A stretch of 64,000 nt of DNA from a virus (Duplodnaviria > Heunggongvirae > Uroviricota > Caudoviricetes). Position numbers and translations under genes: made by a program. The stretch lies in the IMG/VR virus record IMGVR_UViG_2541047802_000007; one strand, given 5' to 3'. Of the stretch, positions 3,128 to 58,380 are shown piece by piece; position 1 is the stretch's first letter; each line of letters opens with the position of its first letter. The notes below the pieces were generated by a model. The model was given only the letters and a program-made list of their open reading frames with translations, searched no databases and was not told where the DNA came from.

Positions 3128-3360
3128 TAGTGGATCTCCTGCGCTTCGTTCTGGATTGCTTCAGCAGTCACACGCAGCAGTTCTGCCGCTTCGACGTGGT
3201 TTAGCTGGCGGGATGTGATATGACACGCCAGGCTATCAAGGCGAGCTGCCATTGCTTCAGCCCTTGCCCGGCGTTCTTCCAGACGAGCCTCTGTCAGTAA
3301 AATATTAAGCCCTGCATCATCCGGTCCGGTTTTAGTCGTGAGGGTTTCAATATTACGCAT
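3127..3360 (-). CDS. Hypothetical phage protein
   Basis: ORF track; mirror of 26778..27011. Confidence 0.4.
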   Translation of the reverse strand: MRNIETLTTKTGPDDAGLNILLTEARLEERRARAEAMAARLDSLACHITSRQLNHVEAAELLRVTAEAIQNEAQEIH

Positions 3361-3427
3361 AATCAATTCTCCTGAATTTAGATAAAGGGATGCCCGGCGG
3401 GTTTACGCCATTAATTTCATTAGTTGC

Positions 3428-3769
3428 TTAATTCGGCATGGTTAGCCGTCTGGGAAATAAGCTCACCACTGCACGAAAATGATTCATTGCTTTAATCAAC
3501 TCCCGCTTTTCGTCAGTGGTCAGCTCATTAATGCTGATGCTATGACGTTCAGCTGGAATTTTTGCCATAAAGAATATGGCAGCCAGTGCTCGTTTATTTT
3601 GTTCGTTATTGATATCCCGTGGATCACGCATATCTTTAATAAACCGCTCAAGCTCTGACTCAATATTCAGGCCAAATACTTTCGCCCTTAACTCCGCAAT
3701 GTGATTAAGTCCATTCAGGCGTTCACCGGGGCTTAATGGAACAGTCGCCGCAGCGCCATTAATTGCCAT
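3428..3769 (-). CDS. Hypothetical phage protein
   Basis: ORF track 113 aa; mirror of 26369..26710. Confidence 0.45.
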   Translation of the reverse strand: MAINGAAATVPLSPGERLNGLNHIAELRAKVFGLNIESELERFIKDMRDPRDINNEQNKRALAAIFFMAKIPAERHSISINELTTDEKRELIKAMNHFRAVVSLFPRRLTMPN

Positions 3770-3791
3770 AATTCATATCCCCAAAACGCAA

Positions 3792-4016
3792 CTATCGTTC
3801 TTTGTTCTTACGGTAACGTTCAAGAGGAGATACATTTTTTCGTATCGTCTCTTTAACCTGCTCTCCCCGTAAAAACGTCCCATCCCTTAGCGTGAAAAAG
3901 TAACTGCCATCGCCCGACAACGACGGATAACAACAGAGCAAATCATCTTCAGGTACTGAATAACTCTCCCCTCTGTAACGAAACTGATAAACCACTTCAC
4001 TTTCCGCTGCATACAT
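3792..4016 (-). CDS. Hypothetical small phage protein
   Basis: ORF track 74 aa; overlaps neighbouring ORF in another frame. Confidence 0.3.
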   Translation of the reverse strand: MYAAESEVVYQFRYRGESYSVPEDDLLCCYPSLSGDGSYFFTLRDGTFLRGEQVKETIRKNVSPLERYRKNKER

Positions 4017-4183
4017 TTTGACTTTCTCCGTTTCCTCGTGGTCAATTCAGACAGCAATTCATCTTGTGAATGACATGGATGCCAGCGTTTACCATCCTCA
4101 CCCATGATCCAGCCGTGACCGTAGTGCATTGCCGGGCTTTGTTTTACCAGCAGCGATGCAAATGATGGTTCTTTCGTCAGCAT
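3887..4183 (-). CDS. Hypothetical small phage protein
   Basis: ORF with RBS-like gaggtg before internal ATG in right-arm copy. Confidence 0.3.
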   Translation of the reverse strand: MLTKEPSFASLLVKQSPAMHYGHGWIMGEDGKRWHPCHSQDELLSELTTRKRRKSKCMQRKVKWFISFVTEGRVIQYLKMICSVVIRRCRAMAVTFSR

Positions 4184-4190
4184 AAGCACC

Positions 4191-4700
4191 TCACAGCAAA
4201 CCGAATGAAGCACCGAGGCCAGTCACGGTATCAACTGCACTCACCATCGCAGGATTAGCCTGTAAACGGGCCTGCAATGAAACAGCCGCCAGCGCCATCA
4301 GTCGTGTTACAGAGTTAATGCTGCTGATAGCATCACGACGACCGGCACTAGTTTTTACATCACCAGATACCGCACCTGCTGCAACACGCCCGATCTCTGC
4401 AGTTGCGCTCATGACGTAATGCGGCAGTTTCTCTTTTGCCACCTCATTAATCGGTACACATGGCAGACAATGAATCTGTGCCAGAAAACCATCTACCAGC
4501 GTTGAATCTTCAGTCAGATCGGTAAGCAGCCAGATTTCTGGTGCGGTTAATAAATGAGGCTGAGCTGGGTTCAGCTTGTTCCGCAGAATCTGCACATTCA
4601 TGCCTGCACGTTCTGCCAGTTGCACCAGGTTGTGACGCAGTGCAAAAGCCCTACAGGCTTCATCGAAATGCGGATGTTTGGAAATCTTGTAATCAAACAT
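4191..4700 (-). CDS. cII: CII-like phage regulatory protein (186 family)
   Basis: 169 aa, position directly after apl in the early operon; mirror of 25438..25947. Confidence 0.65.
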
Positions 4701-4732
4701 GGTGCCCCCTTAGAAAGTTCCCATAATTGAAC

Positions 4733-4975
4733 TTACTTACCAACAATGACGCGGAAGTTGGAATGACCGAGGGATTCACGGACCTGATCAGTTTTGTACA
4801 TCAGATAACGAAGGCTTACGCGGCCTTTATTTTTTTCTTTCTTGACCATGTACTTAGCAAGTTGACCATGGTGAATTTTTTGGTAAACAGAGCCACGGGA
4901 AATGCCCTCCCACTCTGCGAACTCTGCAGGCGTAGCCATCTCTTTTGGTACACGAATTGAAATATCAGTACTCAT
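4733..4975 (-). CDS. apl: Apl/Cox-like small HTH excisionase-repressor
   Basis: 80 aa, first gene of rightward early operon opposite cI. Confidence 0.55.
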   Translation of the reverse strand: MSTDISIRVPKEMATPAEFAEWEGISRGSVYQKIHHGQLAKYMVKKEKNKGRVSLRYLMYKTDQVRESLGHSNFRVIVGK

Positions 4976-5096
4976 AGTGCAGTATCTCTTACTTTGTGTG
5001 CGTGTTAGTTCGTTTTAGCTCGTCTCTTTAACTCTCACATCAAGAGACACGAAGACATTACGATCTTGATTCAAGATTGTCAAATGGAGATTACCA
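4976..5096. promoter_or_regulatory. cI / apl switch region (divergent early promoters and operators)
   Basis: 121-bp intergenic region between divergent cI and apl with short inverted repeats (atcttgattcaagat). Confidence 0.4.
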
Positions 5097-5729
5097 ATGT
5101 TAAACATCAGAATGGGTTCCGATACGGGAGGTAAGGCAGCTATTGAGAGGCTGCTTGAGGCTTATGGATTCACAACTAAGCAGGCATTAAGCGAGCACCT
5201 GAATGTCTCAAAAAGTACTATGGCAAACAGAGTGTTACGTGACAGTTTTCCTGCTGACTGGATAATTCAGTGTGCACTAGAAACCGGTGTTTCGTTACTT
5301 TGGTTAGCCACTGGACAGGGAAGCATGAAAGAAGGATACGAGTCTGAGAAAAGATCTCATAACGAGAACAAACAAGCAATTAAACCGTTATCCAAACTCA
5401 TAACTCCATCTATTCCTAAAGGAACCTTGGAAAATGGACAACTCAGTATTGATGAAGAGATTTTCCTAGACCACAGCATATTACCTGCAGATTATGAAGA
5501 ATCGATGTTCTTAGAAACCCCTACTGATTGTTATCTCATCGATAAATCAGTTAAACAAGTCAGCAATGGATTCTGGCTTATCAATATTGATGGAATGATT
5601 ATTATTGCAAAAATCATGCGGATTCCCGGCAATAAGATTGTAGTAAATCAAGATGAAGCGTCTTTCGAGTGCTCTGCCGATGATGTGGAAGTTATTGGGC
5701 GTGCAGTCAAAGTAATAAAGAGTATCTAA
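5097..5729 (+). CDS. cI: CI-type immunity repressor
   Basis: 210 aa, N-terminal HTH-like region, adjacent to int and opposite apl. Confidence 0.7.
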   Translation: MLNIRMGSDTGGKAAIERLLEAYGFTTKQALSEHLNVSKSTMANRVLRDSFPADWIIQCALETGVSLLWLATGQGSMKEGYESEKRSHNENKQAIKPLSKLITPSIPKGTLENGQLSIDEEIFLDHSILPADYEESMFLETPTDCYLIDKSVKQVSNGFWLINIDGMIIIAKIMRIPGNKIVVNQDEASFECSADDVEVIGRAVKVIKSI

Positions 5730-5731
5730 AC

Positions 5732-6751
5732 ATGACTGTCAGAAAACAGCCAAACGGTAAATGGTTGTGCGAGTGCTATCCCAATGGACGCAATGGCAAG
5801 CGCGTGCGTAAGCAATTTGCTACGAAAGGCGAAGCCATTGCTTTTGAAAGCTTCACAATGGAAGAAGTGAACAAAAAACCATGGCTGGGGGAAAAGGAAG
5901 ATCGGCGACACCTATCAGAATTAATTGAGCAGTGGTATTCCCTGTATGGTCAAACACTCGCAGACCCCAAGCGCCTCATAGCGAAACTTAGAATTATCTG
6001 TAATGGTCTAGGCGATCCCATCGCTTCAGAACTGACAGCCGGTGACTTTACGAAATACCGCGAAGCACGGTTAAAAGGTGAAGTACGAAATGAAGATGGC
6101 ACGTTTATGTCGCCCGTTAAGCCCCGCACGGTAAACCTTGAACAGCGCAATCTATCATCTGTTTTTGGTACACTGAAAAAGCTGGGCCACTGGTCAGCCC
6201 CCAACCCGCTTGCTGGGCTGCCAACATTTAAAATTGCTGAGAGTGAATTGGCGTTCCTGACCCCGGAAGAAATTAAACGTCTGCTGGATGCCTGCGCCGA
6301 TTCTCAAAGCTCCAGCCTGCTTTTGATTGCAAAAATATGCCTGGCCACCGGCGCACGCTGGAGCGAAGCCGAAAACCTGCAGAGTCATCAGGTATCAAAA
6401 TACCGTATCACTTATACCAAGACCAAAGGCAAGAAAAACCGAACTGTGCCTATTTCTAAGGATTTATATGAAGAACTGCCTAAGAATAGGGGGAAGTTAT
6501 TCACCCCATGCAGAAAAGCCTTTGAGCGTGCAGTAAAGCGAGCCGGTTTAGAACTACCAGAAGGCCAATGTACCCATGTTCTGCGCCATACATTTGCCAG
6601 TCATTTTATGATGAACGGTGGAAATATACTGGTACTGCGCGATATTCTTGGACATGCCGATATAAAAATGACGATGATTTACGCTCATTTTTCCCCAGAT
6701 CATCTTGAAGATGCAGTAACTAAAAACCCATTAGCAACCTTGATGGATTAA
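5732..6751 (+). CDS. int: Tyrosine integrase (P2/186 family)
   Basis: 339 aa; C-terminal HxLRHT...Y catalytic region (VLRHTFASH, MIYAHF). Confidence 0.9.
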   Translation: MTVRKQPNGKWLCECYPNGRNGKRVRKQFATKGEAIAFESFTMEEVNKKPWLGEKEDRRHLSELIEQWYSLYGQTLADPKRLIAKLRIICNGLGDPIASELTAGDFTKYREARLKGEVRNEDGTFMSPVKPRTVNLEQRNLSSVFGTLKKLGHWSAPNPLAGLPTFKIAESELAFLTPEEIKRLLDACADSQSSSLLLIAKICLATGARWSEAENLQSHQVSKYRITYTKTKGKKNRTVPISKDLYEELPKNRGKLFTPCRKAFERAVKRAGLELPEGQCTHVLRHTFASHFMMNGGNILVLRDILGHADIKMTMIYAHFSPDHLEDAVTKNPLATLMD

Positions 6752-6755
6752 GCAC

Positions 6756-7979
6756 ATGCGCAACATTATCGAATTAGAACAGATATCGGAAGAACTAAAA
6801 AAACATGAACTATTGCAACCCCCATTCATTGCCGAGGGAAAACTAATTTCTGACTTTTCTAAGAGAGTCGAGTGCTATTTAGAATTAATTGACTCCATTA
6901 GAAATAAATATCCTGACAACGAGATAATTAAACAAGTAAAGATTCGCACAAAATCAATAATATATTTATCTGATAAAATAATAGAAACTCTTAAGCTATT
7001 TTTAATAGGAAATGTTAAAGAAGCTTATAAAAAATTCGATTTGGCAATTACCAAGTCATCAATGCATACTCATCTTTATAAGATGACTGTTCCTCTAACT
7101 AAATTATGCAACCCACACACCCCTTTATTTCGCGTAAGGAAAAGTGAGTGCATCCTAAAACAAAGAGAAGAATTATTTCATATACCATTTAAAAATAGAC
7201 ATTTAGTTAGCGCACAAAGATTTTCTGTATCCGGTCTTCCATGTTTATATCTTGGAACATCAATATTTGTATGTTGGCAAGAAATGGGAAAACCTGACTT
7301 TGATAAACTTTACATATCTTCCTTCATATCCGATAAAGAAAATTCAAATATAAGAATTTTAGATCTTGGGTACAATTTAACATCTGCACTTCGTACAAAA
7401 CCGGGAGATCTTTGGTATTCATTCGAACAAGGTTCAGATGATGATTACGATCTAAATAATGATAATTTCATGGATCAAATTAATGATAAAATTTCAAAGT
7501 TGATTGCATGGCCTTTAGTCCTTGCATGTAACTATACAAAAGATAATGAAAACGCAAGTTTTAATAAAGAATACATAATACCAAACCTATTAATGCAATG
7601 GATTAGTAGTGACAGAAACAAAAATATATCAGGGATATCGTATCGATCAACAAAGATATTAAACCAAAAAGATAGCGATATTGGGATTAATGTAATTATC
7701 CCCCCAAAAATAGAAAACATAGTTGAAACCAATGATACCCACTGTCCTGTTTTAAAAAAAATATTTAGAGTTACAAACCCTGTTTCCTGGACTGTGTTTA
7801 GTACACTAGAAGCCACCCCCTATCTATACAAAAATAATTTTAATTTTTCGACCTATAATCCCGCAAAAGGATGGATTGAAGACTTTGATGAATCCCTTGT
7901 TGAACATTATGAAAATACCACTTTTAGAAAAGTTGAACTCCTTATTCATCAAATGATGAAGTATGAATATTTAAAATAA
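6756..7979 (+). CDS. AT-rich cargo protein with RES-domain-like motif
   Basis: 407 aa; QRFSVSGLPCLYLGTSIFVCWQE resembles RES Arg-Glu-Ser signature; sits between int and att. Confidence 0.45.
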   Translation: MRNIIELEQISEELKKHELLQPPFIAEGKLISDFSKRVECYLELIDSIRNKYPDNEIIKQVKIRTKSIIYLSDKIIETLKLFLIGNVKEAYKKFDLAITKSSMHTHLYKMTVPLTKLCNPHTPLFRVRKSECILKQREELFHIPFKNRHLVSAQRFSVSGLPCLYLGTSIFVCWQEMGKPDFDKLYISSFISDKENSNIRILDLGYNLTSALRTKPGDLWYSFEQGSDDDYDLNNDNFMDQINDKISKLIAWPLVLACNYTKDNENASFNKEYIIPNLLMQWISSDRNKNISGISYRSTKILNQKDSDIGINVIIPPKIENIVETNDTHCPVLKKIFRVTNPVSWTVFSTLEATPYLYKNNFNFSTYNPAKGWIEDFDESLVEHYENTTFRKVELLIHQMMKYEYLK

Positions 7980-8095
7980 GAGTGGCGGCATAATGGCGGC
8001 AAAGAGTTAAAAACACATAAAACAAGGTAATACATCGTAAACTTAAGTGATTGAAAATTAACATAAATAGTTGTTTTGCAACATGTTATAATGGT

Positions 8096-8140
8096 ATGTA
8101 GGAATTTCGGACGCGGGTTCAACTCCCGCCAGCTCCACCA
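8096..8140 (+). other. ssrA: ssrA (tmRNA) 3'-end fragment ending CCA = prophage att core
   Basis: atgtaggaatttcggacgcgggttcaactcccgccagctccacca matches tmRNA 3' end; upstream tmRNA body absent. Confidence 0.8.
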
Positions 8141-8267
8141 ATCATGATTGGACGGTGTAAGGACAACACCAACAAAAACAGGAAGTTAGAAGTCTCAGCA
8201 GGACACCGACCAGACGGTGAGGAGACATAAAAGGATACGCAAAGGAGCCGCGGCTCCGAAGTGAAAT

Positions 8268-8293
8268 GAAAGCCCGCTGATGCGGGCTTTTTT
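8268..8293 (+). terminator. Rho-independent terminator
   Basis: gcccgc-tgat-gcgggc hairpin followed by T6. Confidence 0.5.
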
Positions 8294-8525
8294 GCTTCTT
8301 CTCTTTAGCCTGATTCGACACTCTCAATGCGGCCATAAACAACAACCCACTTTTCTTATACCGTAGCCTGTCCCCCTCTTCCTGCTTTCTAACCATAACA
8401 GATGTGAGCGTTTGCTATGAGCGATATATAGTCATTCGTACCCTCCGATACTAATCATCACAGAAATTAATATATTCATTCCTTACTGAAAAGCTATGAA
8501 GTAGATATATAGGATTGGGGCGCGT

Positions 8526-8723
8526 ATGGCACTGGACAGTTATGCATCTCCGAATATTATTCCGGAGCTAAGACAACCGAATGCCGCAGCAGGTAAGATC
8601 ACGCTAGGGGGGCTGGACAGAATGGCTGTTACGCCCAGTGTGAAGAAAAGAAGGCTAAGTATGGTAGAATTTCCATACGCACAGACCTTGTTATCCGACT
8701 ATACAGCCTGGAAGGCACTATGA
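8526..8723 (+). CDS. Hypothetical small protein, 4-nt overlap with next gene
   Basis: ORF track 65 aa. Confidence 0.3.
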   Translation: MALDSYASPNIIPELRQPNAAAGKITLGGLDRMAVTPSVKKRRLSMVEFPYAQTLLSDYTAWKAL

Positions 8724-9508
8724 CAAATCTACAACTGGAAGAAAGATTTAGGGCGCTTGAGAAAGATTACGATGCGCTCATTTCCACAAAATATACTGCG
8801 CAGAACGTTCTCACTCACACTATGGAAACCTATGTTGATTCTGGTAAATATAAAAACTGGATCGCCAGAGTGAAAAAGTTAATAGAGGACAGCTACGGAA
8901 AAGAGTCTGATTATTACAATGACTTCAATACTGTAAACAGCAGGTGGTCTTCTAATTACAATACACTGATCAAAAGTTATAAACCGTTGTTTGATGCGGC
9001 GAGAGATGATCTTGCGCACTCTGCTGTCAGTACTAATACTCCTCAAGAAGGTTCGCCGCTGAGCCTCGTACTTAATATTCTTAACAGGTTTCCGACCTTT
9101 GTTCGCCAGTTAAAGAGGCGGTACAACGGCCGTGCGCCGCTTGAAGTTAATGATGAGTATGACGTACAGGATTTGATTTATGCACTGCTGACGCTTCATT
9201 TTAATGATATTAGGGCGGAAGAGTATACCCCCAGCTTTGCGGGCGCGGCCTCAAGACAGGACTTTCTTTTGAAAAAAGAGAAAATTGTGATAGAGGTGAA
9301 GAAAACCCGTGAATCTCTGGGAGCGGGTAAAGTTGGTGGAGAGTTGCTTATTGATATGGCGCGCTACCGCGCTCACCAAGACTGCGATACGTTGATCTTG
9401 TTTGTATATGACCCGGATTGCTACATAAATAATCCTTTGGGCGTGAAAACCGATCTGGAATCTAAAGACGCGGAAGGAAAAGTGAAGGTTGTTATTGCGC
9501 AGTTCTGA
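8720..9508 (+). CDS. Hypothetical protein with PD-(D/E)xK-like nuclease motif
   Basis: 262 aa; C-terminal D...IVIEVKK pattern. Confidence 0.45.
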   Translation: MTNLQLEERFRALEKDYDALISTKYTAQNVLTHTMETYVDSGKYKNWIARVKKLIEDSYGKESDYYNDFNTVNSRWSSNYNTLIKSYKPLFDAARDDLAHSAVSTNTPQEGSPLSLVLNILNRFPTFVRQLKRRYNGRAPLEVNDEYDVQDLIYALLTLHFNDIRAEEYTPSFAGAASRQDFLLKKEKIVIEVKKTRESLGAGKVGGELLIDMARYRAHQDCDTLILFVYDPDCYINNPLGVKTDLESKDAEGKVKVVIAQF

Positions 9509-9595
9509 CACGCTTAAGTGTCACCTTACAGGATTAGGTTTGCGGCCGTGCCAGCAGGACGAGCATGAAAAAGGCCGCTGGCACGGCCGGATTTG

Positions 9596-9889
9596 TCATC
9601 TTTGCCAGGTCAAATCAAAATCTACGTGAAAATCCGCAGGCTTAAGCTCGCAACTGCCACCACGCCCAATTAACGACGTTATGTTTACAACGTTTGAACC
9701 TGTTGAGATGGCAAGTTGAGTGTCATCTGTAAACGTGATGATTAGCATTTCAGTCTGATGAACCTGTACTCCAGTTTTCTGAAAACCAATCTGGACAGAT
9801 TTCACCGTTTTCCCAACCATTTCACGGGCTTGATTGATAGAGTAATTAGCTTCAACTTGTAGGTCATTCCTGAACTTGGGTAGTGTCAT
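9596..9889 (-). CDS. Hypothetical small protein
   Basis: ORF track 97 aa. Confidence 0.35.
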   Translation of the reverse strand: MTLPKFRNDLQVEANYSINQAREMVGKTVKSVQIGFQKTGVQVHQTEMLIITFTDDTQLAISTGSNVVNITSLIGRGGSCELKPADFHVDFDLTWQR

Positions 9890-10099
9890 TTTACATCCTC
9901 TTTAGTGAAGTTTTCGCTATTTAAATCAGCAGCATTCCTTTTAAATCACTGGCATGTCAGCAGTGGATAGTCTGAGTGTAACGTCCAGTGAGGGGAATAA
10001 ATATTGGTCAGACTTTGCACAAAAGAGCCAACTATCGCGGGCTCTCTCTCATCATGTGCGAAAATTGACCACAATATGAAATCCAGTTCCATTCCGAAA

Positions 10100-10924
<825 letters not shown>

Positions 10925-11034
10925 TCAATTGACAACTTATAATCCCTACTAGTTAGCATTATGATTTCCAGAGTGAGGAATATAAAAATCTCTGTTTCTG
11001 GCACATAACAGCCCTTAAGATCGTAGCTCGCCAT

Positions 11035-11080
11035 CATGGGGTGTCGGGGGGCGGAGGTTCAAATCCTCTCGTGCCGACCA
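11035..11080 (+). other. tRNA-Pro (proL-like) 3' fragment ending CCA; probable att-site remnant
   Basis: catggggtgtcggggggcggaggttcaaatcctctcgtgccgacca matches 3' portion of tRNA-Pro; 5' half missing. Confidence 0.65.
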
Positions 11081-11092
11081 AAAATCCCTTAA

Positions 11093-11121
11093 GAACCAGC
11101 CTATTATGGCTGGTTTTTTTA
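11093..11121 (+). terminator. Rho-independent terminator after tRNA-Pro fragment
   Basis: aaccagcc-tattatg-gctggtt hairpin then T-run. Confidence 0.55.
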
Positions 11122-11288
11122 TGATTGTTTTTTATGCGGAGAAATACCGGGGAATAATTGGGGTAAAACACCTTTAGGCTATTCACTTAGCCTACCACCA
11201 TCAAAATCTTTCCGAATGTATCCATCTCTTTTTTCTTATGCAGCTAAAACGAAGTCTTGATACTGTTTATTTACACAGATAAGAATAA

Positions 11289-11308
11289 TACTGTCTACAA
11301 ACGCAGTA
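11289..11308. promoter_or_regulatory. LexA-box-like sequence
   Basis: tactgtctacaaacgcagta = CTGT-N8-GCAG, one mismatch from CTGT-N8-ACAG. Confidence 0.35.
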
Positions 11309-11321
11309 CAAAAGAAGTGTT

Positions 11322-11500
11322 ATGCGTATTGAGATCTCCATAGCCAAAGACAAAATGACCAAATGCCAAACGGCGCTGTGGACGCGTTAAAGGAAGAATT
11401 AACCCAACACATTGGCAAGCGTTATGACGATGTGGAGATGATCGTAAAAGCCACCAGCAACGATAGTTTTTCAGTTAGACATACTGCAGATAAAGATTGA
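11322..11500 (+). pseudogene. dinI-like gene disrupted by frameshift
   Basis: [11 protein letters not shown] in one frame, ...[25 protein letters not shown]... in another; both halves DinI-like. Confidence 0.4.
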
Positions 11501-11924
11501 GCTAAAACTTTCGTTCAGGAAACTCTGAATGATACCTGAGAGTCTACTGAAGAGTTGTTTGTTCACTAGTTAGCACGTAGGAAATCATTCAATACTCGCA
11601 CTATCGGAAGTTCACCAGCCAGTCGTAGCACGTCCTTGCAAACGACGTGCCTACGGTTTCAATCACCTCTCACCATCAATTCTATCAATAATAATTAAAC
11701 AGCGCCTAGACAAAATAAATAACAACAAGTCAACAACCTCGACAGGATGCCGATGGGATGATGAAGAGATAAGAAAGAATAACCAGTAAAGCCCTAAAAC
11801 GTCAGCGTTCAGACGCGTTTTTTACTTAATCGGTAACAAATACGTTGTATCATAGCAAAATAAAATGATTGTTCTAAATCAGATTAACTCCTCACTTTTG
11901 TACAATGTCGCTTACAGGTATACC

Positions 11925-13814
11925 ATGAAATCCGAGACGCTAACTGTCCAACAACTTTTTCAAGACCGCCGACAATACTGTGTTCCATTCTATCAACGTG
12001 CCTATGTATGGACTCAGCAAGACCAGTGGTCAGCTCTACTGGAGGATATCCTAGAGAAAGTACAATCCCGGCTCTCGGGTACAAAACCAACTCCCCATTT
12101 CCTTGGTGCGGTTGTACTGGAACCTCAATCAAAAAAAGGATTATTAGGTGTAGATTCCATACATATTATTGATGGTCAGCAACGATTGACCACTCTTCAA
12201 TATGTTCTGGCATCCATCCGATTAGCATTACGTGCTACGGATCTTTCCAGCTTAGAGGCTCTCATTTCGCCTTGCCTGAAAAACTCAAACGAAGACACAA
12301 TGCGAAATAAAGAAGTAGAACGCTTCAAACTGTGGCCAACTTTTCGGGATCAAACTCATTTTATTCAAAGTTTTAATGTTGAAAATATTGACGATCTCCG
12401 GGACGTATTCTCTGATAGTTTCACGCAGCATGGTACGTTGCGTAAGCATTTTAATCACCCGCCATCACTAGAAGCATTATGTTTTTTTACTGAAGCCTTT
12501 ATAAAATGGATTAAAATAGAAAACCACTCACCACAAGAAAATGCTGTAGCTCTAATTGAGGCTGTCTTAACAGATCTGAAACTGGTAAGCATATTTCTCG
12601 AAGCTGAAGATGATGCCCAAATAATTTTTGAAACATTAAATGGGCGAGGGGCGGAACTTCATGCTACGGATCTTATTCGCAACTATATCTTTATGTGCGC
12701 TGAGCATGAAAATATTAATGCTATTGAATTATATGAAAATGAGTGGAAGAGCTTTGAAGATAAATACTGGTCGGAAAAACAACGCCGTGGACGTATTAAT
12801 AAACCACGCATGGAGTGGCTAGTACATGCGACATTGCAATCAGAAAGGCAACGTGAAATTGATCTGTCTCGCCTTTACAATGAGTATCGTGATTATGTAA
12901 GTAAGGACTTGTCTTCACAACGAGCAGATCTGCAAGTAAAGCGCCTCAAACAATATGCATCACAATATAAAGAATTGGTTGATGGTTTTGGCACAACCCC
13001 CATCTCACACTTTGGATATCGCATCGCAGACTATGATGTGACGACACTTTATCCGCTTGCTTTGTTCATTTCGATAGCTAACATCGCTGATGATGAGAAA
13101 GCAGCCATGTATAATGATCTTGTCTCCTACGTAGTACGAAGAGCCGTATGTGGCCTGACGCCAAAGAATTACAACAATGTATTTATGAATGTATTGCGGC
13201 ACTTGGCTAAAACGGAAATTTCCAGTGTTGAGTTACGTAATATCCTCAATAACTTAAATGGCGAAGCCTCACGTTGGCCTGGTGACTCAGAATTTCTCAA
13301 CGCTTGCATCAATGCTCCACTTTATCCTGGCAGGCTCGACGCACCGAAAATGCGCTCAATGTTAACGGAACTTGAAAGAGAACTTTGTCGCCAAGTAAAG
13401 ACAGAAAAGCCTGATGTTCCAAATCTTTCTAATCTCGATATCGATCATCTTATGCCTCAAAGTTGGTATTCCTGTTGGCCTCTCGAAAATGGTCGTATGG
13501 TGACAAATTCAGATGCTACGGTATTGAACCAAATTGTTCTGTCTGGAACCGATCTTACCCCTGAACAGCTACTGGTAAGGAAACGGCAACAAGCGATATC
13601 TACTTTGGGAAATCTAACTTTGCTTAACCTTAGCGTAAACCGTTCTGTTCAGAATGCTGTATTTCTGAAAAAACGTGATGCTCTCATCGTCCACACCAAT
13701 CTACGACTGAACATTCCACTTATAGTTAAGGATAAATGGGATGAGGATGAAATCCTGGAGCGGGGTAAAAAGTTGGGGGAAATTGCATTGAAAGTATGGC
13801 CAAAACACGATTAA
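11925..13814 (+). CDS. GmrSD-like type IV restriction endonuclease (DUF262 + DUF1524)
   Basis: FYQRAYVW and IDGQQR motifs N-terminal; DIDHLMPQSW...GNLTLLNLSVN C-terminal; track start 11865, ATG 11925 preferred. Confidence 0.7.
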   Translation: MKSETLTVQQLFQDRRQYCVPFYQRAYVWTQQDQWSALLEDILEKVQSRLSGTKPTPHFLGAVVLEPQSKKGLLGVDSIHIIDGQQRLTTLQYVLASIRLALRATDLSSLEALISPCLKNSNEDTMRNKEVERFKLWPTFRDQTHFIQSFNVENIDDLRDVFSDSFTQHGTLRKHFNHPPSLEALCFFTEAFIKWIKIENHSPQENAVALIEAVLTDLKLVSIFLEAEDDAQIIFETLNGRGAELHATDLIRNYIFMCAEHENINAIELYENEWKSFEDKYWSEKQRRGRINKPRMEWLVHATLQSERQREIDLSRLYNEYRDYVSKDLSSQRADLQVKRLKQYASQYKELVDGFGTTPISHFGYRIADYDVTTLYPLALFISIANIADDEKAAMYNDLVSYVVRRAVCGLTPKNYNNVFMNVLRHLAKTEISSVELRNILNNLNGEASRWPGDSEFLNACINAPLYPGRLDAPKMRSMLTELERELCRQVKTEKPDVPNLSNLDIDHLMPQSWYSCWPLENGRMVTNSDATVLNQIVLSGTDLTPEQLLVRKRQQAISTLGNLTLLNLSVNRSVQNAVFLKKRDALIVHTNLRLNIPLIVKDKWDEDEILERGKKLGEIALKVWPKHD

Positions 13815-13926
13815 TGCAATTAATAAAATGATTATAGTGGCCTTACATTAGTAAGGCCGCTACTCACTATTAAATACTTTAATTTGCATCAAGAACAGCA
13901 GTGTCAGCCCTAGGTCTCGGACTTTG

Positions 13927-14049
13927 TACCGCTTATCTTGTCTTCAAAAATCAGCTCGCATCCTGCACAGTTCAGCGCATTACGTTGTAGATCTGTGTTC
14001 TGGTCATTTGTTGACACACGTACATAGCCAATAAGCATGGTAGATCTCC
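13927..14049 (-). pseudogene. Pin-like serine invertase, truncated after ~41 codons
   Basis: MLIGYVRVSTNDQNTDLQRNALNCAGCELIFEDKISGTKSE then stop; intact homolog at 56819..57436. Confidence 0.75.
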
Positions 14050-14092
14050 CTGACAAAAGCAGGAATGATGCCATTTGCTCGTTATTTCTGCA

Positions 14093-14118
14093 TTTTCATA
14101 AACGTTGGTTTGGGAGAA
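14093..14118. other. 26-bp invertase crossover site (pix/hix-like), left
   Basis: ttttcataaacgttggtttgggagaa; inverted copy at 16020..16045. Confidence 0.7.
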
Positions 14119-14559
14119 GCGGCAAAACGGAATGTGGGCAACGGGGAAAACCAAATCCCTGATATGTCTTTCTGGACGGTTACTGGTGGCAATGGAAATT
14201 TTGTGATTCGTCAACCTGACGGGCTAATCATTCAGATGGTTACTGTAAGTATAAGCGGCCCAGTGGCGATGAATGGAATGACTGATAATGCTTATGCCAT
14301 CACAGGTTCTAATAAGTCTTATATTGCCACAGCCACATTGCCCTTTGTATTTCCTAATAAGGTGCTGGGCGTTATCCCTCTGGTATCAACAACAGCTTAT
14401 GGTGGTGTATCCAGTAATATTACAGGTTCATACGCGACGGCGGTTTGTTCTTTTGCCGCTGTCAGGGGGAATAATACGATTGTGTTCAAAGTCGACAAAC
14501 CACTGAATGCAGCCTTTCCTTCAGATACCAGCGTCTCAGCGTTAATCATTGGACGGTAA
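14119..14559 (+). CDS. Tail-fibre C-terminal variable segment (Sv type), no own start
   Basis: Open frame runs through crossover site (FINVGLGE); track ORF 14065..14559 has artefactual N-terminus. Confidence 0.6.
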   Translation, partial: AAKRNVGNGENQIPDMSFWTVTGGNGNFVIRQPDGLIIQMVTVSISGPVAMNGMTDNAYAITGSNKSYIATATLPFVFPNKVLGVIPLVSTTAYGGVSSNITGSYATAVCSFAAVRGNNTIVFKVDKPLNAAFPSDTSVSALIIGR

Positions 14560-14561
14560 TA

Positions 14562-15005
14562 ATGAACTCAGTATTCTTTTCACCCGGAAGTAAAAGTTTT
14601 TATCTGCAAGAATTGTTTCCAGAATATGAGGATGCGGGAACGCTTCCTGATGATGTTATTGAAATTACCAGAGAAACATATGAGCAATTTCTTGGTCTGC
14701 ATCCAGAAGGGAAAGAAATTGGCGCTGACAGTTCAGGACGGCCAGTATGGATTAATTCCCCACCCCCTTCAAAAGAGGATGAGGTGTTGACGGCTGAAAT
14801 GAAAAAAATATCTTTGGTTTCAGAAGTCAATACCTACATCAATACCCATCAGTGGCCTGGCAAAGCTGCTATTGGTCGTCTGAAAGGCGAGGAACTGGCG
14901 CAATATAATTCGTGGCTGGATTATCTGGACGCACTGGAACTGGTCGATACTTCCTGTGCGCCAGATATTGAATGGCCTACGCCTCCGGCAGTTCAGGCCA
15001 GATGA
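14562..15005 (+). CDS. Tail fibre assembly chaperone
   Basis: 147 aa directly after Sv; C-terminal DIEWPTPP. Confidence 0.65.
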   Translation: MNSVFFSPGSKSFYLQELFPEYEDAGTLPDDVIEITRETYEQFLGLHPEGKEIGADSSGRPVWINSPPPSKEDEVLTAEMKKISLVSEVNTYINTHQWPGKAAIGRLKGEELAQYNSWLDYLDALELVDTSCAPDIEWPTPPAVQAR

Positions 15006-15579
15006 CATCCGGCGCTGTGCTGGTATTTGTTGCCGTCACCGCGTCAATGTAATCCAGCACAGCGTTAAGCCGGGTTGTTTCTGCCTGCATCAGCTTCCGT
15101 CCGGCCTGTAATTTCAGCTGAATCAGACCGATGGAAGCCATTGCAGCATCAATCAGTGACTGACGCTGTGCTTCTGCCGCGTCTACTGCGGCGCTATGCT
15201 GTGCCTCAGTATCGGTCACCCATTTCTCACCATCCCATTTATCGTATGGCGTTAATGGGGCAATAGTGGTTGTATTTTCGGGGTAATCACCCGGTGCTGT
15301 GATTTGTTTTGATTCTCCCGTTTCGGTGTTATAGACGATTTCACCGCGATGGTCTGGCACATATTCCCATGAATTTAAATTCACAGAACGACAGATAGCA
15401 TAACCCGCCTTATGTATACCTGGTGCATCCAGACAGGAATATGCCGGGATACCAACACCAACGGCAAGATATTCACTTGAAGTGGAAATATATTCCCGAG
15501 TTTCACCATCATAGTTATAAACGGTAATATCCCCTGCCTTTGTAGCAACAAGTCCACTATTTAATATTGCTTTATCCAT
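14977..15579 (-). CDS. Tail fibre assembly chaperone (TfaE-like), near-identical to prophage gpG at 47600..48202
   Basis: 200 aa MDKAILNSGLVATKAGDITVYNYDGETREY...; TAATG overlap with Sv' stop. Confidence 0.75.
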   Translation of the reverse strand: MDKAILNSGLVATKAGDITVYNYDGETREYISTSSEYLAVGVGIPAYSCLDAPGIHKAGYAICRSVNLNSWEYVPDHRGEIVYNTETGESKQITAPGDYPENTTTIAPLTPYDKWDGEKWVTDTEAQHSAAVDAAEAQRQSLIDAAMASIGLIQLKLQAGRKLMQAETTRLNAVLDYIDAVTATNTSTAPDVIWPELPEA

Positions 15580-16019
15580 TATGCTGCTCTCACGATATAG
15601 TTAAATGCAATGTTGCGTGGACGGGTATCGACGGGGTTAACGGCCACTGTACCCGACACGGACTGGTCATTACCGTTGCTAACGGTAATGTTACTACTGG
15701 TTGATCCAATCCCTACTGAATCGGTAAATTTAGCACCTGAGCCGCTCAAAGTTCCCGAGATGATAGCTAGCTCCACATAAAAAGTACCTACAGTTGGCTC
15801 TTGTGTTGACAGCACCGCACGCCTTGAATCAACGCCGCGCCCATCATCCCAGCCACGAATAAACTCACCACGTAAATCAGGCAATTTATTTGTCGGATAA
15901 GCCTTTGCCAGTTCCGGGTATTCTTCAGCAGAAAAAGCCGCACCGTTGCATTTCAGCCAGCCTGTTGGCGGTGTGGCTGAAGGCCATGGAACAGGCACAC
16001 CAACAGGTAATGCAGAGCC
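15579..16019 (-). CDS. Tail-fibre C-terminal variable segment (Sv' type), no own start
   Basis: GEGSALPVGVPVPWPSATPPTGWLKCNGAAF... shares N-part and last 13 aa with gpH C-terminus. Confidence 0.65.
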   Translation of the reverse strand, partial: GSALPVGVPVPWPSATPPTGWLKCNGAAFSAEEYPELAKAYPTNKLPDLRGEFIRGWDDGRGVDSRRAVLSTQEPTVGTFYVELAIISGTLSGSGAKFTDSVGIGSTSSNITVSNGNDQSVSGTVAVNPVDTRPRNIAFNYIVRAA

Positions 16020-16045
16020 TTCTCCCAAACCAACGTTTATGAAAA
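16020..16045. other. 26-bp invertase crossover site, right
   Basis: ttctcccaaaccaacgtttatgaaaa. Confidence 0.7.
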
Positions 16046-16088
16046 TGCAGAAATAACGAGCAAATGGCATCATTCCTGCTTTTGTCAG

Positions 16089-16211
16089 GGAGATCTACCA
16101 TGCTTATTGGCTATGTACGTGTGTCAACAAATGACCAGAACACAGATCTACAACGTAATGCGCTGAACTGTGCAGGATGCGAGCTGATTTTTGAAGACAA
16201 GATAAGCGGTA
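16089..16211 (+). pseudogene. Pin-like serine invertase, truncated after ~41 codons
   Basis: Same N-terminus as Gin at 56819..57436, then abrupt divergence and stop. Confidence 0.75.
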
Positions 16212-16323
16212 CAAAGTCCGAGACCTAGGGCTGACACTGCTGTTCTTGATGCAAATTAAAGTATTTAATAGTGAGTAGCGGCCTTACTAATGTAAGGCCA
16301 CTATAATCATTTTATTAATTGCA

Positions 16324-18213
16324 TTAATCGTGTTTTGGCCATACTTTCAATGCAATTTCCCCCAACTTTTTACCCCGCTCCAGGATTTCATCCTCATCCC
16401 ATTTATCCTTAACTATAAGTGGAATGTTCAGTCGTAGATTGGTGTGGACGATGAGAGCATCACGTTTTTTCAGAAATACAGCATTCTGAACAGAACGGTT
16501 TACGCTAAGGTTAAGCAAAGTTAGATTTCCCAAAGTAGATATCGCTTGTTGCCGTTTCCTTACCAGTAGCTGTTCAGGGGTAAGATCGGTTCCAGACAGA
16601 ACAATTTGGTTCAATACCGTAGCATCTGAATTTGTCACCATACGACCATTTTCGAGAGGCCAACAGGAATACCAACTTTGAGGCATAAGATGATCGATAT
16701 CGAGATTAGAAAGATTTGGAACATCAGGCTTTTCTGTCTTTACTTGGCGACAAAGTTCTCTTTCAAGTTCCGTTAACATTGAGCGCATTTTCGGTGCGTC
16801 GAGCCTGCCAGGATAAAGTGGAGCATTGATGCAAGCGTTGAGAAATTCTGAGTCACCAGGCCAACGTGAGGCTTCGCCATTTAAGTTATTGAGGATATTA
16901 CGTAACTCAACACTGGAAATTTCCGTTTTAGCCAAGTGCCGCAATACATTCATAAATACATTGTTGTAATTCTTTGGCGTCAGGCCACATACGGCTCTTC
17001 GTACTACGTAGGAGACAAGATCATTATACATGGCTGCTTTCTCATCATCAGCGATGTTAGCTATCGAAATGAACAAAGCAAGCGGATAAAGTGTCGTCAC
17101 ATCATAGTCTGCGATGCGATATCCAAAGTGTGAGATGGGGGTTGTGCCAAAACCATCAACCAATTCTTTATATTGTGATGCATATTGTTTGAGGCGCTTT
17201 ACTTGCAGATCTGCTCGTTGTGAAGACAAGTCCTTACTTACATAATCACGATACTCATTGTAAAGGCGAGACAGATCAATTTCACGTTGCCTTTCTGATT
17301 GCAATGTCGCATGTACTAGCCACTCCATGCGTGGTTTATTAATACGTCCACGGCGTTGTTTTTCCGACCAGTATTTATCTTCAAAGCTCTTCCACTCATT
17401 TTCATATAATTCAATAGCATTAATATTTTCATGCTCAGCGCACATAAAGATATAGTTGCGAATAAGATCCGTAGCATGAAGTTCCGCCCCTCGCCCATTT
17501 AATGTTTCAAAAATTATTTGGGCATCATCTTCAGCTTCGAGAAATATGCTTACCAGTTTCAGATCTGTTAAGACAGCCTCAATTAGAGCTACAGCATTTT
17601 CTTGTGGTGAGTGGTTTTCTATTTTAATCCATTTTATAAAGGCTTCAGTAAAAAAACATAATGCTTCTAGTGATGGCGGGTGATTAAAATGCTTACGCAA
17701 CGTACCATGCTGCGTGAAACTATCAGAGAATACGTCCCGGAGATCGTCAATATTTTCAACATTAAAACTTTGAATAAAATGAGTTTGATCCCGAAAAGTT
17801 GGCCACAGTTTGAAGCGTTCTACTTCTTTATTTCGCATTGTGTCTTCGTTTGAGTTTTTCAGGCAAGGCGAAATGAGAGCCTCTAAGCTGGAAAGATCCG
17901 TAGCACGTAATGCTAATCGGATGGATGCCAGAACATATTGAAGAGTGGTCAATCGTTGCTGACCATCAATAATATGTATGGAATCTACACCTAATAATCC
18001 TTTTTTTGATTGAGGTTCCAGTACAACCGCACCAAGGAAATGGGGAGTTGGTTTTGTACCCGAGAGCCGGGATTGTACTTTCTCTAGGATATCCTCCAGT
18101 AGAGCTGACCACTGGTCTTGCTGAGTCCATACATAGGCACGTTGATAGAATGGAACACAGTATTGTCGGCGGTCTTGAAAAAGTTGTTGGACAGTTAGCG
18201 TCTCGGATTTCAT
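16324..18213 (-). CDS. GmrSD-like type IV restriction endonuclease (DUF262 + DUF1524)
   Basis: Mirror of 11925..13814. Confidence 0.7.
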   Translation of the reverse strand: MKSETLTVQQLFQDRRQYCVPFYQRAYVWTQQDQWSALLEDILEKVQSRLSGTKPTPHFLGAVVLEPQSKKGLLGVDSIHIIDGQQRLTTLQYVLASIRLALRATDLSSLEALISPCLKNSNEDTMRNKEVERFKLWPTFRDQTHFIQSFNVENIDDLRDVFSDSFTQHGTLRKHFNHPPSLEALCFFTEAFIKWIKIENHSPQENAVALIEAVLTDLKLVSIFLEAEDDAQIIFETLNGRGAELHATDLIRNYIFMCAEHENINAIELYENEWKSFEDKYWSEKQRRGRINKPRMEWLVHATLQSERQREIDLSRLYNEYRDYVSKDLSSQRADLQVKRLKQYASQYKELVDGFGTTPISHFGYRIADYDVTTLYPLALFISIANIADDEKAAMYNDLVSYVVRRAVCGLTPKNYNNVFMNVLRHLAKTEISSVELRNILNNLNGEASRWPGDSEFLNACINAPLYPGRLDAPKMRSMLTELERELCRQVKTEKPDVPNLSNLDIDHLMPQSWYSCWPLENGRMVTNSDATVLNQIVLSGTDLTPEQLLVRKRQQAISTLGNLTLLNLSVNRSVQNAVFLKKRDALIVHTNLRLNIPLIVKDKWDEDEILERGKKLGEIALKVWPKHD

Positions 18214-18637
18214 GGTATACCTGTAAGCGACATTGTACAAAAGTGAGGAGTTAATCTGATTTAGAACAATCATTTTATTTTGCTATGATACAACGTATTT
18301 GTTACCGATTAAGTAAAAAACGCGTCTGAACGCTGACGTTTTAGGGCTTTACTGGTTATTCTTTCTTATCTCTTCATCATCCCATCGGCATCCTGTCGAG
18401 GTTGTTGACTTGTTGTTATTTATTTTGTCTAGGCGCTGTTTAATTATTATTGATAGAATTGATGGTGAGAGGTGATTGAAACCGTAGGCACGTCGTTTGC
18501 AAGGACGTGCTACGACTGGCTGGTGAACTTCCGATAGTGCGAGTATTGAATGATTTCCTACGTGCTAACTAGTGAACAAACAACTCTTCAGTAGACTCTC
18601 AGGTATCATTCAGAGTTTCCTGAACGAAAGTTTTAGC

Positions 18638-18816
18638 TCAATCTTTATCTGCAGTATGTCTAACTGAAAAACTATCGTTGCTGGTGGCTTTTACGATCAT
18701 CTCCACATCGTCATAACGCTTGCCAATGTGTTGGGTTAATTCTTCCTTTAACGCGTCCACAGCGCCGTTTGGCATTTGGTCATTTTGTCTTTGGCTATGG
18801 AGATCTCAATACGCAT
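18638..18816 (-). pseudogene. dinI-like gene disrupted by frameshift
   Basis: Mirror of 11322..11500. Confidence 0.4.
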
Positions 18817-18829
18817 AACACTTCTTTTG

Positions 18830-18849
18830 TACTGCGTTTGTAGACAGTA
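18830..18849. promoter_or_regulatory. LexA-box-like sequence
   Basis: Mirror of 11289..11308. Confidence 0.35.
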
Positions 18850-19016
18850 TTATTCTTATCTGTGTAAATAAACAGTATCAAGACTTCGTTTTAGCTGCAT
18901 AAGAAAAAAGAGATGGATACATTCGGAAAGATTTTGATGGTGGTAGGCTAAGTGAATAGCCTAAAGGTGTTTTACCCCAATTATTCCCCGGTATTTCTCC
19001 GCATAAAAAACAATCA

Positions 19017-19045
19017 TAAAAAAACCAGCCATAATAGGCTGGTTC
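19017..19045 (-). terminator. Rho-independent terminator
   Basis: Mirror of 11093..11121. Confidence 0.5.
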
Positions 19046-19057
19046 TTAAGGGATTTT

Positions 19058-19103
19058 TGGTCGGCACGAGAGGATTTGAACCTCCGCCCCCCGACACCCC
19101 ATG
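19058..19103 (-). other. tRNA-Pro 3' fragment (att remnant)
   Basis: Mirror of 11035..11080. Confidence 0.65.
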
Positions 19104-19213
19104 ATGGCGAGCTACGATCTTAAGGGCTGTTATGTGCCAGAAACAGAGATTTTTATATTCCTCACTCTGGAAATCATAATGCTAACTAGTAGGGATTATA
19201 AGTTGTCAATTGA

Positions 19214-20038
<825 letters not shown>

Positions 20039-20248
20039 TTTCGGAATGGAACTGGATTTCATATTGTGGTCAATTTTCGCACATGATGAGAGAGAGCCCG
20101 CGATAGTTGGCTCTTTTGTGCAAAGTCTGACCAATATTTATTCCCCTCACTGGACGTTACACTCAGACTATCCACTGCTGACATGCCAGTGATTTAAAAG
20201 GAATGCTGCTGATTTAAATAGCGAAAACTTCACTAAAGAGGATGTAAA

Positions 20249-20542
20249 ATGACACTACCCAAGTTCAGGAATGACCTACAAGTTGAAGCTAATTACTCTA
20301 TCAATCAAGCCCGTGAAATGGTTGGGAAAACGGTGAAATCTGTCCAGATTGGTTTTCAGAAAACTGGAGTACAGGTTCATCAGACTGAAATGCTAATCAT
20401 CACGTTTACAGATGACACTCAACTTGCCATCTCAACAGGTTCAAACGTTGTAAACATAACGTCGTTAATTGGGCGTGGTGGCAGTTGCGAGCTTAAGCCT
20501 GCGGATTTTCACGTAGATTTTGATTTGACCTGGCAAAGATGA
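20249..20542 (+). CDS. Hypothetical small protein
   Basis: ORF track 97 aa. Confidence 0.35.
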   Translation: MTLPKFRNDLQVEANYSINQAREMVGKTVKSVQIGFQKTGVQVHQTEMLIITFTDDTQLAISTGSNVVNITSLIGRGGSCELKPADFHVDFDLTWQR

Positions 20543-20629
20543 CAAATCCGGCCGTGCCAGCGGCCTTTTTCATGCTCGTCCTGCTGGCACGGCCGCAAAC
20601 CTAATCCTGTAAGGTGACACTTAAGCGTG

Positions 20630-21418
20630 TCAGAACTGCGCAATAACAACCTTCACTTTTCCTTCCGCGTCTTTAGATTCCAGATCGGTTTTCACGCCCA
20701 AAGGATTATTTATGTAGCAATCCGGGTCATATACAAACAAGATCAACGTATCGCAGTCTTGGTGAGCGCGGTAGCGCGCCATATCAATAAGCAACTCTCC
20801 ACCAACTTTACCCGCTCCCAGAGATTCACGGGTTTTCTTCACCTCTATCACAATTTTCTCTTTTTTCAAAAGAAAGTCCTGTCTTGAGGCCGCGCCCGCA
20901 AAGCTGGGGGTATACTCTTCCGCCCTAATATCATTAAAATGAAGCGTCAGCAGTGCATAAATCAAATCCTGTACGTCATACTCATCATTAACTTCAAGCG
21001 GCGCACGGCCGTTGTACCGCCTCTTTAACTGGCGAACAAAGGTCGGAAACCTGTTAAGAATATTAAGTACGAGGCTCAGCGGCGAACCTTCTTGAGGAGT
21101 ATTAGTACTGACAGCAGAGTGCGCAAGATCATCTCTCGCCGCATCAAACAACGGTTTATAACTTTTGATCAGTGTATTGTAATTAGAAGACCACCTGCTG
21201 TTTACAGTATTGAAGTCATTGTAATAATCAGACTCTTTTCCGTAGCTGTCCTCTATTAACTTTTTCACTCTGGCGATCCAGTTTTTATATTTACCAGAAT
21301 CAACATAGGTTTCCATAGTGTGAGTGAGAACGTTCTGCGCAGTATATTTTGTGGAAATGAGCGCATCGTAATCTTTCTCAAGCGCCCTAAATCTTTCTTC
21401 CAGTTGTAGATTTGTCAT
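20630..21418 (-). CDS. Hypothetical protein with PD-(D/E)xK-like motif
   Basis: Mirror of 8720..9508. Confidence 0.45.
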   Translation of the reverse strand: MTNLQLEERFRALEKDYDALISTKYTAQNVLTHTMETYVDSGKYKNWIARVKKLIEDSYGKESDYYNDFNTVNSRWSSNYNTLIKSYKPLFDAARDDLAHSAVSTNTPQEGSPLSLVLNILNRFPTFVRQLKRRYNGRAPLEVNDEYDVQDLIYALLTLHFNDIRAEEYTPSFAGAASRQDFLLKKEKIVIEVKKTRESLGAGKVGGELLIDMARYRAHQDCDTLILFVYDPDCYINNPLGVKTDLESKDAEGKVKVVIAQF

Positions 21419-21612
21419 AGTGCCTTCCAGGCTGTATAGTCGGATAACAAGGTCTGTGCGTATGGAAATTCTACCATACTTAGCCTTCTTTTCTTCACAC
21501 TGGGCGTAACAGCCATTCTGTCCAGCCCCCCTAGCGTGATCTTACCTGCTGCGGCATTCGGTTGTCTTAGCTCCGGAATAATATTCGGAGATGCATAACT
21601 GTCCAGTGCCAT
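21415..21612 (-). CDS. Hypothetical small protein
   Basis: Mirror of 8526..8723. Confidence 0.3.
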   Translation of the reverse strand: MALDSYASPNIIPELRQPNAAAGKITLGGLDRMAVTPSVKKRRLSMVEFPYAQTLLSDYTAWKAL

Positions 21613-21844
21613 ACGCGCCCCAATCCTATATATCTACTTCATAGCTTTTCAGTAAGGAATGAATATATTAATTTCTGTGATGATTAGTATCGGAGGGTAC
21701 GAATGACTATATATCGCTCATAGCAAACGCTCACATCTGTTATGGTTAGAAAGCAGGAAGAGGGGGACAGGCTACGGTATAAGAAAAGTGGGTTGTTGTT
21801 TATGGCCGCATTGAGAGTGTCGAATCAGGCTAAAGAGAAGAAGC

Positions 21845-21870
21845 AAAAAAGCCCGCATCAGCGGGCTTTC
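21845..21870 (-). terminator. Rho-independent terminator beyond att
   Basis: Mirror of 8268..8293. Confidence 0.5.
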
Positions 21871-21997
21871 ATTTCACTTCGGAGCCGCGGCTCCTTTGCG
21901 TATCCTTTTATGTCTCCTCACCGTCTGGTCGGTGTCCTGCTGAGACTTCTAACTTCCTGTTTTTGTTGGTGTTGTCCTTACACCGTCCAATCATGAT

Positions 21998-22042
21998 TGG
22001 TGGAGCTGGCGGGAGTTGAACCCGCGTCCGAAATTCCTACAT
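21998..22042 (-). other. ssrA: ssrA 3'-end fragment = prophage att core
   Basis: Revcomp matches tmRNA 3' end ending CCA; 3' end points away from prophage. Confidence 0.8.
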
Positions 22043-22158
22043 ACCATTATAACATGTTGCAAAACAACTATTTATGTTAATTTTCAATCACTTAAGTTTA
22101 CGATGTATTACCTTGTTTTATGTGTTTTTAACTCTTTGCCGCCATTATGCCGCCACTC

Positions 22159-55174: not shown

Positions 55175-55242
55175 AGTGTTCTCAATATTGATATTTTGTG
55201 TATCATTACAATGATTCTGATAGCAAAGGTAGGGATCTGGAT

Positions 55243-57436: not shown

Positions 57437-57490
57437 TCTGGATCTCCCGTTTAAAAGCGCAAATCACGCCATGCAGGCCGGAAACAACCA

Positions 57491-58377: not shown

Positions 58378-58380
58378 ATT

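Follow-up and report, generated by a model that had tools for sequence, protein, structure and literature searches.

The subject of this analysis is a tail-fibre cassette at positions 14093–16045 of a 64,000-nucleotide stretch of Caudoviricetes DNA, the window (IMG/VR virus record IMGVR_UViG_2541047802_000007). The coordinates of the cassette are the outer ends of two 26-bp crossover sites, which lie in inverted orientation and have compatible central dinucleotides, TT and AA. The left site (14093–14118) reads TTTTCATAAACG-TT-GGTTTGGGAGAA and is the exact reverse complement of the right site (16020–16045), TTCTCCCAAACC-AA-CGTTTATGAAAA. The latter is called stub-side here, for the invertase remnant beside it, and is the same as the pinE-side site of the e14 element of Escherichia coli K-12.

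Between the sites, profile search places two opposed variable fibre ends, Sv and Sv', each with its own assembly gene, in the classical order Sv-tfa-tfa'-Sv'. The four open reading frames (ORFs) are the Sv ORF (14065–14559, plus strand; Gp53-like_C, at 24.2 bits marginally below the Pfam cutoff of 24.9), its cognate assembly gene tfa (14562–15005, plus strand; Caudo_TAP), the assembly gene tfaE cognate to Sv' (14977–15579, minus strand; Caudo_TAP) and the Sv' ORF, a homologue of StfE (15579–16073, minus strand; Phage Tail Collar domain). Both outer ORFs encode 164 residues and start with a common 18-codon leader (MMPFARYFCIFINVGLGE) on the stub side, followed in the Sv ORF by a variable module of 146 residues. 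The first-pass annotation had described this canonical layout and had both variable frames reading straight through the crossover sites, and the two descriptions hold: the frames stay open through the sites for 18 codons. The Sv ORF is the counterpart of StfE2 of e14, with an identical leader and a variable part that is another sequence module with the same Pfam domain.

Two parts of the cassette resemble the tail-fibre genes of a P2-like prophage 31 kb away in the window. tfaE is 89% identical to e14 tfaE and 80% identical to the P2-like G gene at 47600–48202 (stretch 14984–15630 against 47549–48195), and the distal 217 nt of Sv' (15817–16033) are 90% identical to the P2-like H gene (47119–47335). 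Through these stretches two prophages of one genome could exchange receptor-binding modules by homologous recombination.

Outside the sites stands a fragment of the serine invertase gene pin, which appears once on each side. The right copy (16100–16228, plus strand) has 41 codons identical to PinE, including Ser9, then a threonine codon and a stop; the left copy (13910–14038, minus strand) is its mirror image, 42 codons and then the stop, so that both read MLIGYVRVSTNDQNTDLQRNALNCAGCELIFEDKISGTKSE-T-stop. The fragment spans positions 2–48 of the 145 of the Resolvase profile, which is the N-terminal part, and is non-functional. No intact serine invertase gene adjoins the segment, and RefSeq genomes annotate the same pseudogene. 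A putative Fis-dependent recombinational enhancer lies inside the stub (16121–16185, +88 to +152 from the site centre) and is 100% identical to the corresponding part of pinE. Two 15-mers resembling the Fis consensus, centred at +95.5 and +144.5, are conserved in the stub, pinE and gin, and Fis is predicted to bind there. The Hin enhancer, 65 bp long and bounded by two Fis sites, lies about 100 bp from hix (PMC3798978), and the position of the region in the stub agrees with that expectation. A scan of 15900–16400 gave no consensus match for promoters or terminators.

The pin gene is cut after codon 41, where a defence island starts. The first gene of the island, which replaces the 3' three quarters of pin, encodes a GmrSD-type type IV restriction enzyme (16324–18273, minus strand; 1415 bits against the PADLOC type IV model), with a mirror copy at 11865–13814 on the plus strand. 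The island as a whole covers 16228–21418 (mirror 8720–13910) and includes, besides GmrSD, PD-T4-3 (19232–20038) and a DpnII/MboI-like nuclease (20630–21418). In K-12 e14, mcrA follows pinE at the same position, and from these gene orders the site after pin looks like an exchange hotspot for anti-phage genes.

The first-pass annotation presented the cassette as an orphan, with the same stub of about 41 codons on both flanks and no fibre constant region. The two stubs are present as described, but they are merely the innermost part of a perfect inverted repeat of 14,119 nt. The left arm (1–14119) is the exact reverse complement of the right arm (16019–30137), with 0 mismatches, and it is cut by the window edge, so 14,119 nt is a lower bound on arm length. 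The left flank accordingly repeats the right flank backwards: GmrSD, a DinI pseudogene, PD-T4-3, the DpnII/MboI-like nuclease, the P2-like integrase, CI, early genes and part of gene A. Around position 15069 the composition profile forms a mirror image. Between the arms lies a non-palindromic loop of 1,899 nt bounded by the crossover sites, and flank gives way to segment at the central dinucleotide plus the inner half-site. Perfect identity over 14 kb rules out a chance origin of the repeat. With such a repeat around the stubs, the meaning of the ‘orphan’ state changes.

How the cassette is natively placed can be read from finished genomes. E. coli S88, IHE3034, APEC O1 and ATCC 11775 carry it with 100% identity; in these extraintestinal pathogenic strains the host prophage adjoins ssrA. 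The window is collinear with S88 and 100% identical to it from 16019 to 51000, which includes the right arm, and 99.98% identical from 50378 to 55331; its first 16,038 positions are collinear with the same S88 sequence on the minus strand. A complete prophage ends distally in the cassette in both S88 and IHE3034; its genes include those for terminase, portal, HK97-type capsid, sheath, tube, tape measure and baseplate J, together with YmfQ. The native fibre gene there encodes 247 residues, in which a 101-residue constant region, Sc (MHRIDTK…ALENLGLGE), is in frame with Sv (IHE3034) or with Sv' (S88). The pin stub and GmrSD stand on only one side and Sc on the opposite side. The native Sc-side site, CTCTCGAAAACC-TT-GGTTTGGGAGAA, differs from the left site of the window; its junction reads …CTCTCGAAAACC running into TTGGTTTGGGAGAA…, or in a longer form …GGACGGCACGGTGAAAACGGCTCTCGAAAACC running into TTGGTTTGGGAGAA…. 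The native pair of sites is the e14 pair, and the native inverted repeat is perfect over only 15 bp.

In the window, a tblastn search with the native 101-residue Sc finds no constant region anywhere (best E=5.3), and the P2-like H gene, considered for that role, has only its distal variable part in common with the cassette. To this extent the missing constant region had been described correctly; an in-frame Sc is nevertheless present in S88, IHE3034, APEC O1 and the other public contexts shown with identical cassettes. Among public contigs carrying the 14065–14559 ORF, 10 of the 10 contexts shown have Sc, YmfQ, baseplate J and the remaining prophage on one side, with the stub and GmrSD confined to the other (24 were read, with 12 more flagged as similar). 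The two-stub arrangement occurs in 0 of 5,426 complete E. coli genomes, the best match reaching 95% coverage with a different right flank. As properties of the element, then, neither the orphan state nor the truncated invertase on both sides can be kept: in genomes of 100% identity one side carries Sc and a full prophage, and the in-frame constant region that the first-pass annotation said would speak against an orphan adjoins the cassette in S88 and IHE3034. A stub on both sides without Sc is foreign to the element itself. By sequence comparison the cassette belongs to a known kind, the e14-family P-type invertible tail-fibre segment with a truncated pin.

In its native state the cassette would work as follows. 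The late operon would read through the 101-residue Sc into whichever module, Sv or Sv', faces it, and a serine invertase would exchange strands at the central dinucleotide of the two 26-bp sites and flip the 1.9-kb segment. The defence island headed by GmrSD would have cut the resident pin after codon 41, with both sites kept together with the enhancer region, which is within the first 125 nt of pin. As pin is cut while these cis elements are kept, inversion would depend on an invertase supplied in trans.

The two-stub layout without Sc is most probably a fold-back misjoin made during assembly. The left junction of the window is of the S88 type and the right junction of the IHE3034 type, each valid for one orientation of the segment. 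From the left, positions 1–16038 would represent the haplotype with the S88 orientation, on the minus strand (flank B, stub, site, Sv…, where B is the stub-side flank), and from the right, positions 14100–55331 would represent the haplotype with the IHE3034 orientation (…Sv', site, stub, flank B). The two haplotypes would overlap over the whole 1.9-kb segment and give rc(B)-segment-B, rc being the reverse complement. With both orientations among the reads, flank B would be joined to both ends of the segment in the assembly graph, and a walk through rc(B)-segment-B would be locally supported throughout. Because the native inverted repeat is perfect over just 15 bp, repeat collapse would not cross it, and both junctions must be in the reads. 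A misjoin of this kind, if that is what happened, is therefore indirect evidence that the two orientations coexisted in the sequenced material.

Independent metagenome assemblies emit the same topology, to the k-mer limit. One metaSPAdes contig in ENA (L027, from 3 samples) is the same as window positions 14065–16073, that is, the 1,899-nt segment plus exactly 55 nt of stub-side flank at each end. A second (L028, from 11 samples) runs from the central TT (14105) to 16073, and further contigs (L029–L035 and L014) end exactly at the boundary of the 55-mer or at the central TT. These contigs, which come from gut metagenomes, suggest mixed orientations of the segment in natural E. coli populations. 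Exact-protein look-ups with both 164-residue ORFs and with the Gin invertase encoded elsewhere in the window returned no contig with long palindromic arms, only the 2,009-nt L027. Forde et al. warn that such loci can give artefactual duplications and report hairpins at contig ends (PMC4134206).

Several points count against a misjoin. The artefact is deduced by comparing sequences, and L027 supports the topology just to k-mer depth (55 nt), against arms of 14 kb. The far end of the left arm lies beyond the window. The choice of Gin, rather than another invertase, as the flipping enzyme is presumptive.

A first alternative is unlikely: that the palindrome is physically real and was formed when an invertase recombined the Sc-side site on one sister chromosome with the stub-side site on the second. 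The products would be rc(B)-segment-B and the reciprocal A-segment-rc(A), present as an inverted chromosome dimer or as a fixed inverted duplication replacing the prophage side. The flank and the segment switch exactly at the central dinucleotide plus the inner half-site, as a serine-invertase crossover would give, but a misjoin in the graph predicts the same precision, since each junction is real sequence from one of the two orientations. The absence of any divergence over 14 kb likewise fits an artefact at least as well. An intact Gin is encoded in the window, and in strain 2022E04-002 a hybrid site of the invertase type occurs together with a recombinase gene on either side of the cassette; judging by this site, exchanges between non-partner sites appear to happen. 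Wild-type invertases, as known from Gin and Hin, need two inverted sites on one supercoiled molecule together with the Fis enhancer, and strongly disfavour intermolecular exchange. A palindrome made in this way requires just such an intermolecular reaction, disfavoured by wild-type Din invertases, and an inverted dimer would carry two origins and inverted dif sites and is not expected to be inherited. The 5,426 complete genomes lack the arrangement, as do all contexts shown for the ORF-bearing contigs. That an inverted dimer or fold-back duplication was abundant or stable enough in a Gin-carrying strain to be assembled is distinctly unlikely. If true, it would be an in vivo example of an exchange between molecules that wild-type Din invertases are not known to carry out.

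The arrangement in 2022E04-002 deserves description in its own right. In NZ_CM132301.1 (8117–10900) the same cassette has the pin stub on its left and, on its right, an intact recombinase gene of 199 codons followed by P2-like tail genes; the right junction passes through the hybrid site TTCTCCCAAACC-AA-CGTTTTCGTCTT. Either the invertible cassettes of two prophages have truly undergone inversion with each other or this assembly, too, is faulty.

It is very unlikely that the cassette is genuinely orphaned, a reservoir of receptor-binding modules flipped by Gin with no constant region or promoter nearby. The window holds no Sc, the cis elements are intact, and the 80–90% identity of the Sv'/tfaE stretches to the P2-like H and G genes at 47–48 kb makes module exchange by homologous recombination conceivable. 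A reservoir of this kind, however, needs the palindromic arrangement to be real, whereas in the genomes of 100% identity a complete tail-fibre operon has the cassette as its working end, and in true assemblies an in-frame constant region adjoins it. A generic long-read hairpin chimera at a contig end, unrelated to the segment (a missed SMRTbell adapter or a nanopore fold-back), is extremely unlikely: contig-end hairpins are a known artefact (PMC4134206) and the left arm, at about 14 kb, is about as long as a long read, but such chimeras fold at a point and at random positions. The hinge here is a loop of 1,899 nt whose limits coincide to the base with the sites, a coincidence with random odds of about 1 in a million, and the explanation is rejected on that ground.

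Whichever way the contig was joined, the segment itself appears to be mobile. Among complete genomes carrying this stub, it adjoins Sv' in 47 and Sv in 79, and from these opposite junctions it can be concluded that the segment inverts in natural strains. Its sites match the functional e14 sites of K-12 exactly, and the cis requirements for inversion look intact. The candidate enzyme for this strain is the invertase Gin of a Mu-like prophage, which the first-pass annotation had placed, correctly, at 56819–57436 (minus strand), 41 kb from the cassette; in the mechanism outlined above it would be the obvious candidate, and a role for it in flipping the cassette is plausible. The proposal that the cassette could be flipped in trans is plausible by comparison, with sites equal to the functional e14 sites, an enhancer region equal to that of pinE, 47 genomes against 79, and inversion in trans established in three published cases. 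PinQ of the Qin prophage flips the e14 segment in trans (PMC12529663), and PinE is cited in the same paper as complementing gin. The Phi4 prophage of strain EC958, which has a truncated invertase, shows both orientations in one culture (PMC4134206), and both orientations have been found side by side in clonal cultures (PMC4272514).

Gin belongs to a Mu-like G segment of its own. The gix sites at 57491–57516 and 60486–60511 flank this segment (57491–60511), whose 55-nt inverted repeats are 95% identical. Public contigs with an identical Gin have both orientations of G, with S proteins of 460 or 511 residues, and many different chromosomal sites harbour Mu-like prophages with an identical Gin.

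The kind of element has been described before, and close precedents are published. The e14 P segment of K-12 with its invertase PinE was reportedly described by Plasterk and van de Putte in 1985 (as cited in PMC4272514 and PMC12529663). The two elements are alike in the order ymfQ, Sc-Sv, tfa, tfa', Sv', pin and a type IV restriction gene (ymfQ-stfP-tfaP-tfaE-stfE-pinE-mcrA in K-12) and in both 26-bp sites, which are identical. The Sc of the native genomes is near-identical to the N-terminus of StfP, differing at 3 of 101 residues, and over the aligned parts DNA identity is 89% for tfaE, 95% for Sv' and 95% for the 5' end of pin. Unlike e14, the element here has pin cut after codon 41, GmrSD in place of mcrA, and an Sv and tfa that form another module than stfP/tfaP. 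Its host prophage is complete and lies at ssrA, whereas e14 is a remnant at icd.

Phi4 of EC958 is alike in having an invertible tail-fibre segment with both orientations in one culture and a severely truncated invertase of its own; its authors credit the inversion to the invertase of another prophage acting in trans (PMC4134206). Phi4 is nevertheless another prophage; its segment measures 3.1 kb, its sites are gix-like, and its truncation removes only the helix-turn-helix domain, while here only 41 codons remain. The action of PinQ on the e14 P segment (Kirigo et al. 2025, PMC12529663) offers a second parallel, as the invertase of another prophage flips a P segment in trans and the pin-side ORF (StfE/StfE2, with the same 18-codon leader) gains a new C-terminal module; K-12, unlike the present case, keeps an intact pinE. 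The Mu G segment with Gin (56819–60511) in the window is comparable too. Both systems have a Din-family serine invertase, 26-bp sites with an AAACC..GGTTT core and the logic Sv-U-U'-Sv'. Over 42 residues Gin and the stub are 83% identical, and in both genes the Fis-like motifs lie at equal offsets. The G segment differs in its length of 3 kb, its 55-nt inverted repeats and its other variable modules.

The prophages around the cassette have features of their own. The Mu-like prophage sits inside the ogr gene of the P2-like prophage (55243–55380): ogr breaks off after codon 29, at 55331, and the right end of Mu starts at 55332 (TGAAGCGGCGCACGAAAAGCG…). In S88 ogr is intact and is followed by ssrA, and in genomes of the S88 type ssrA lies beyond the position of the Mu insertion; a scan of the window for tRNA and tmRNA genes found none. 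Between its gene A and portal gene the P2-like prophage has PD-T7-1 (31437–32846; 652 bits, full length), and among its late genes an AIPR/AbiU-like gene (41712–43412) in an insert of low G+C content. Beside its integrase, in a stretch of 36–37% G+C, is an ORF of 407 residues (22159–23382) with no match in Pfam or PADLOC. A frameshift, annotated in S88 too, breaks gene A, the replication endonuclease (27175–30176), into two ORFs, and the prophage is on this evidence probably replication-defective.

The first lesson is one of caution: a segment that flips in the sequenced culture can yield a mirror-image contig resembling an exotic ‘orphan cassette with two invertase stubs’. The underlying biology, a pin gene reduced to its cis-acting 5' end and inversion in trans, is already described for E. 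coli EC958 and K-12. The truncation of pin spares exactly the cis elements needed for inversion, which fits continued selection for switching. What is selected may be more than the phage fibre. In K-12 the StfE2 product blocks adsorption of phage T2 (PMC12529663), and this result raises the possibility that the pin-side ORF, besides the fibre, is a selected product.

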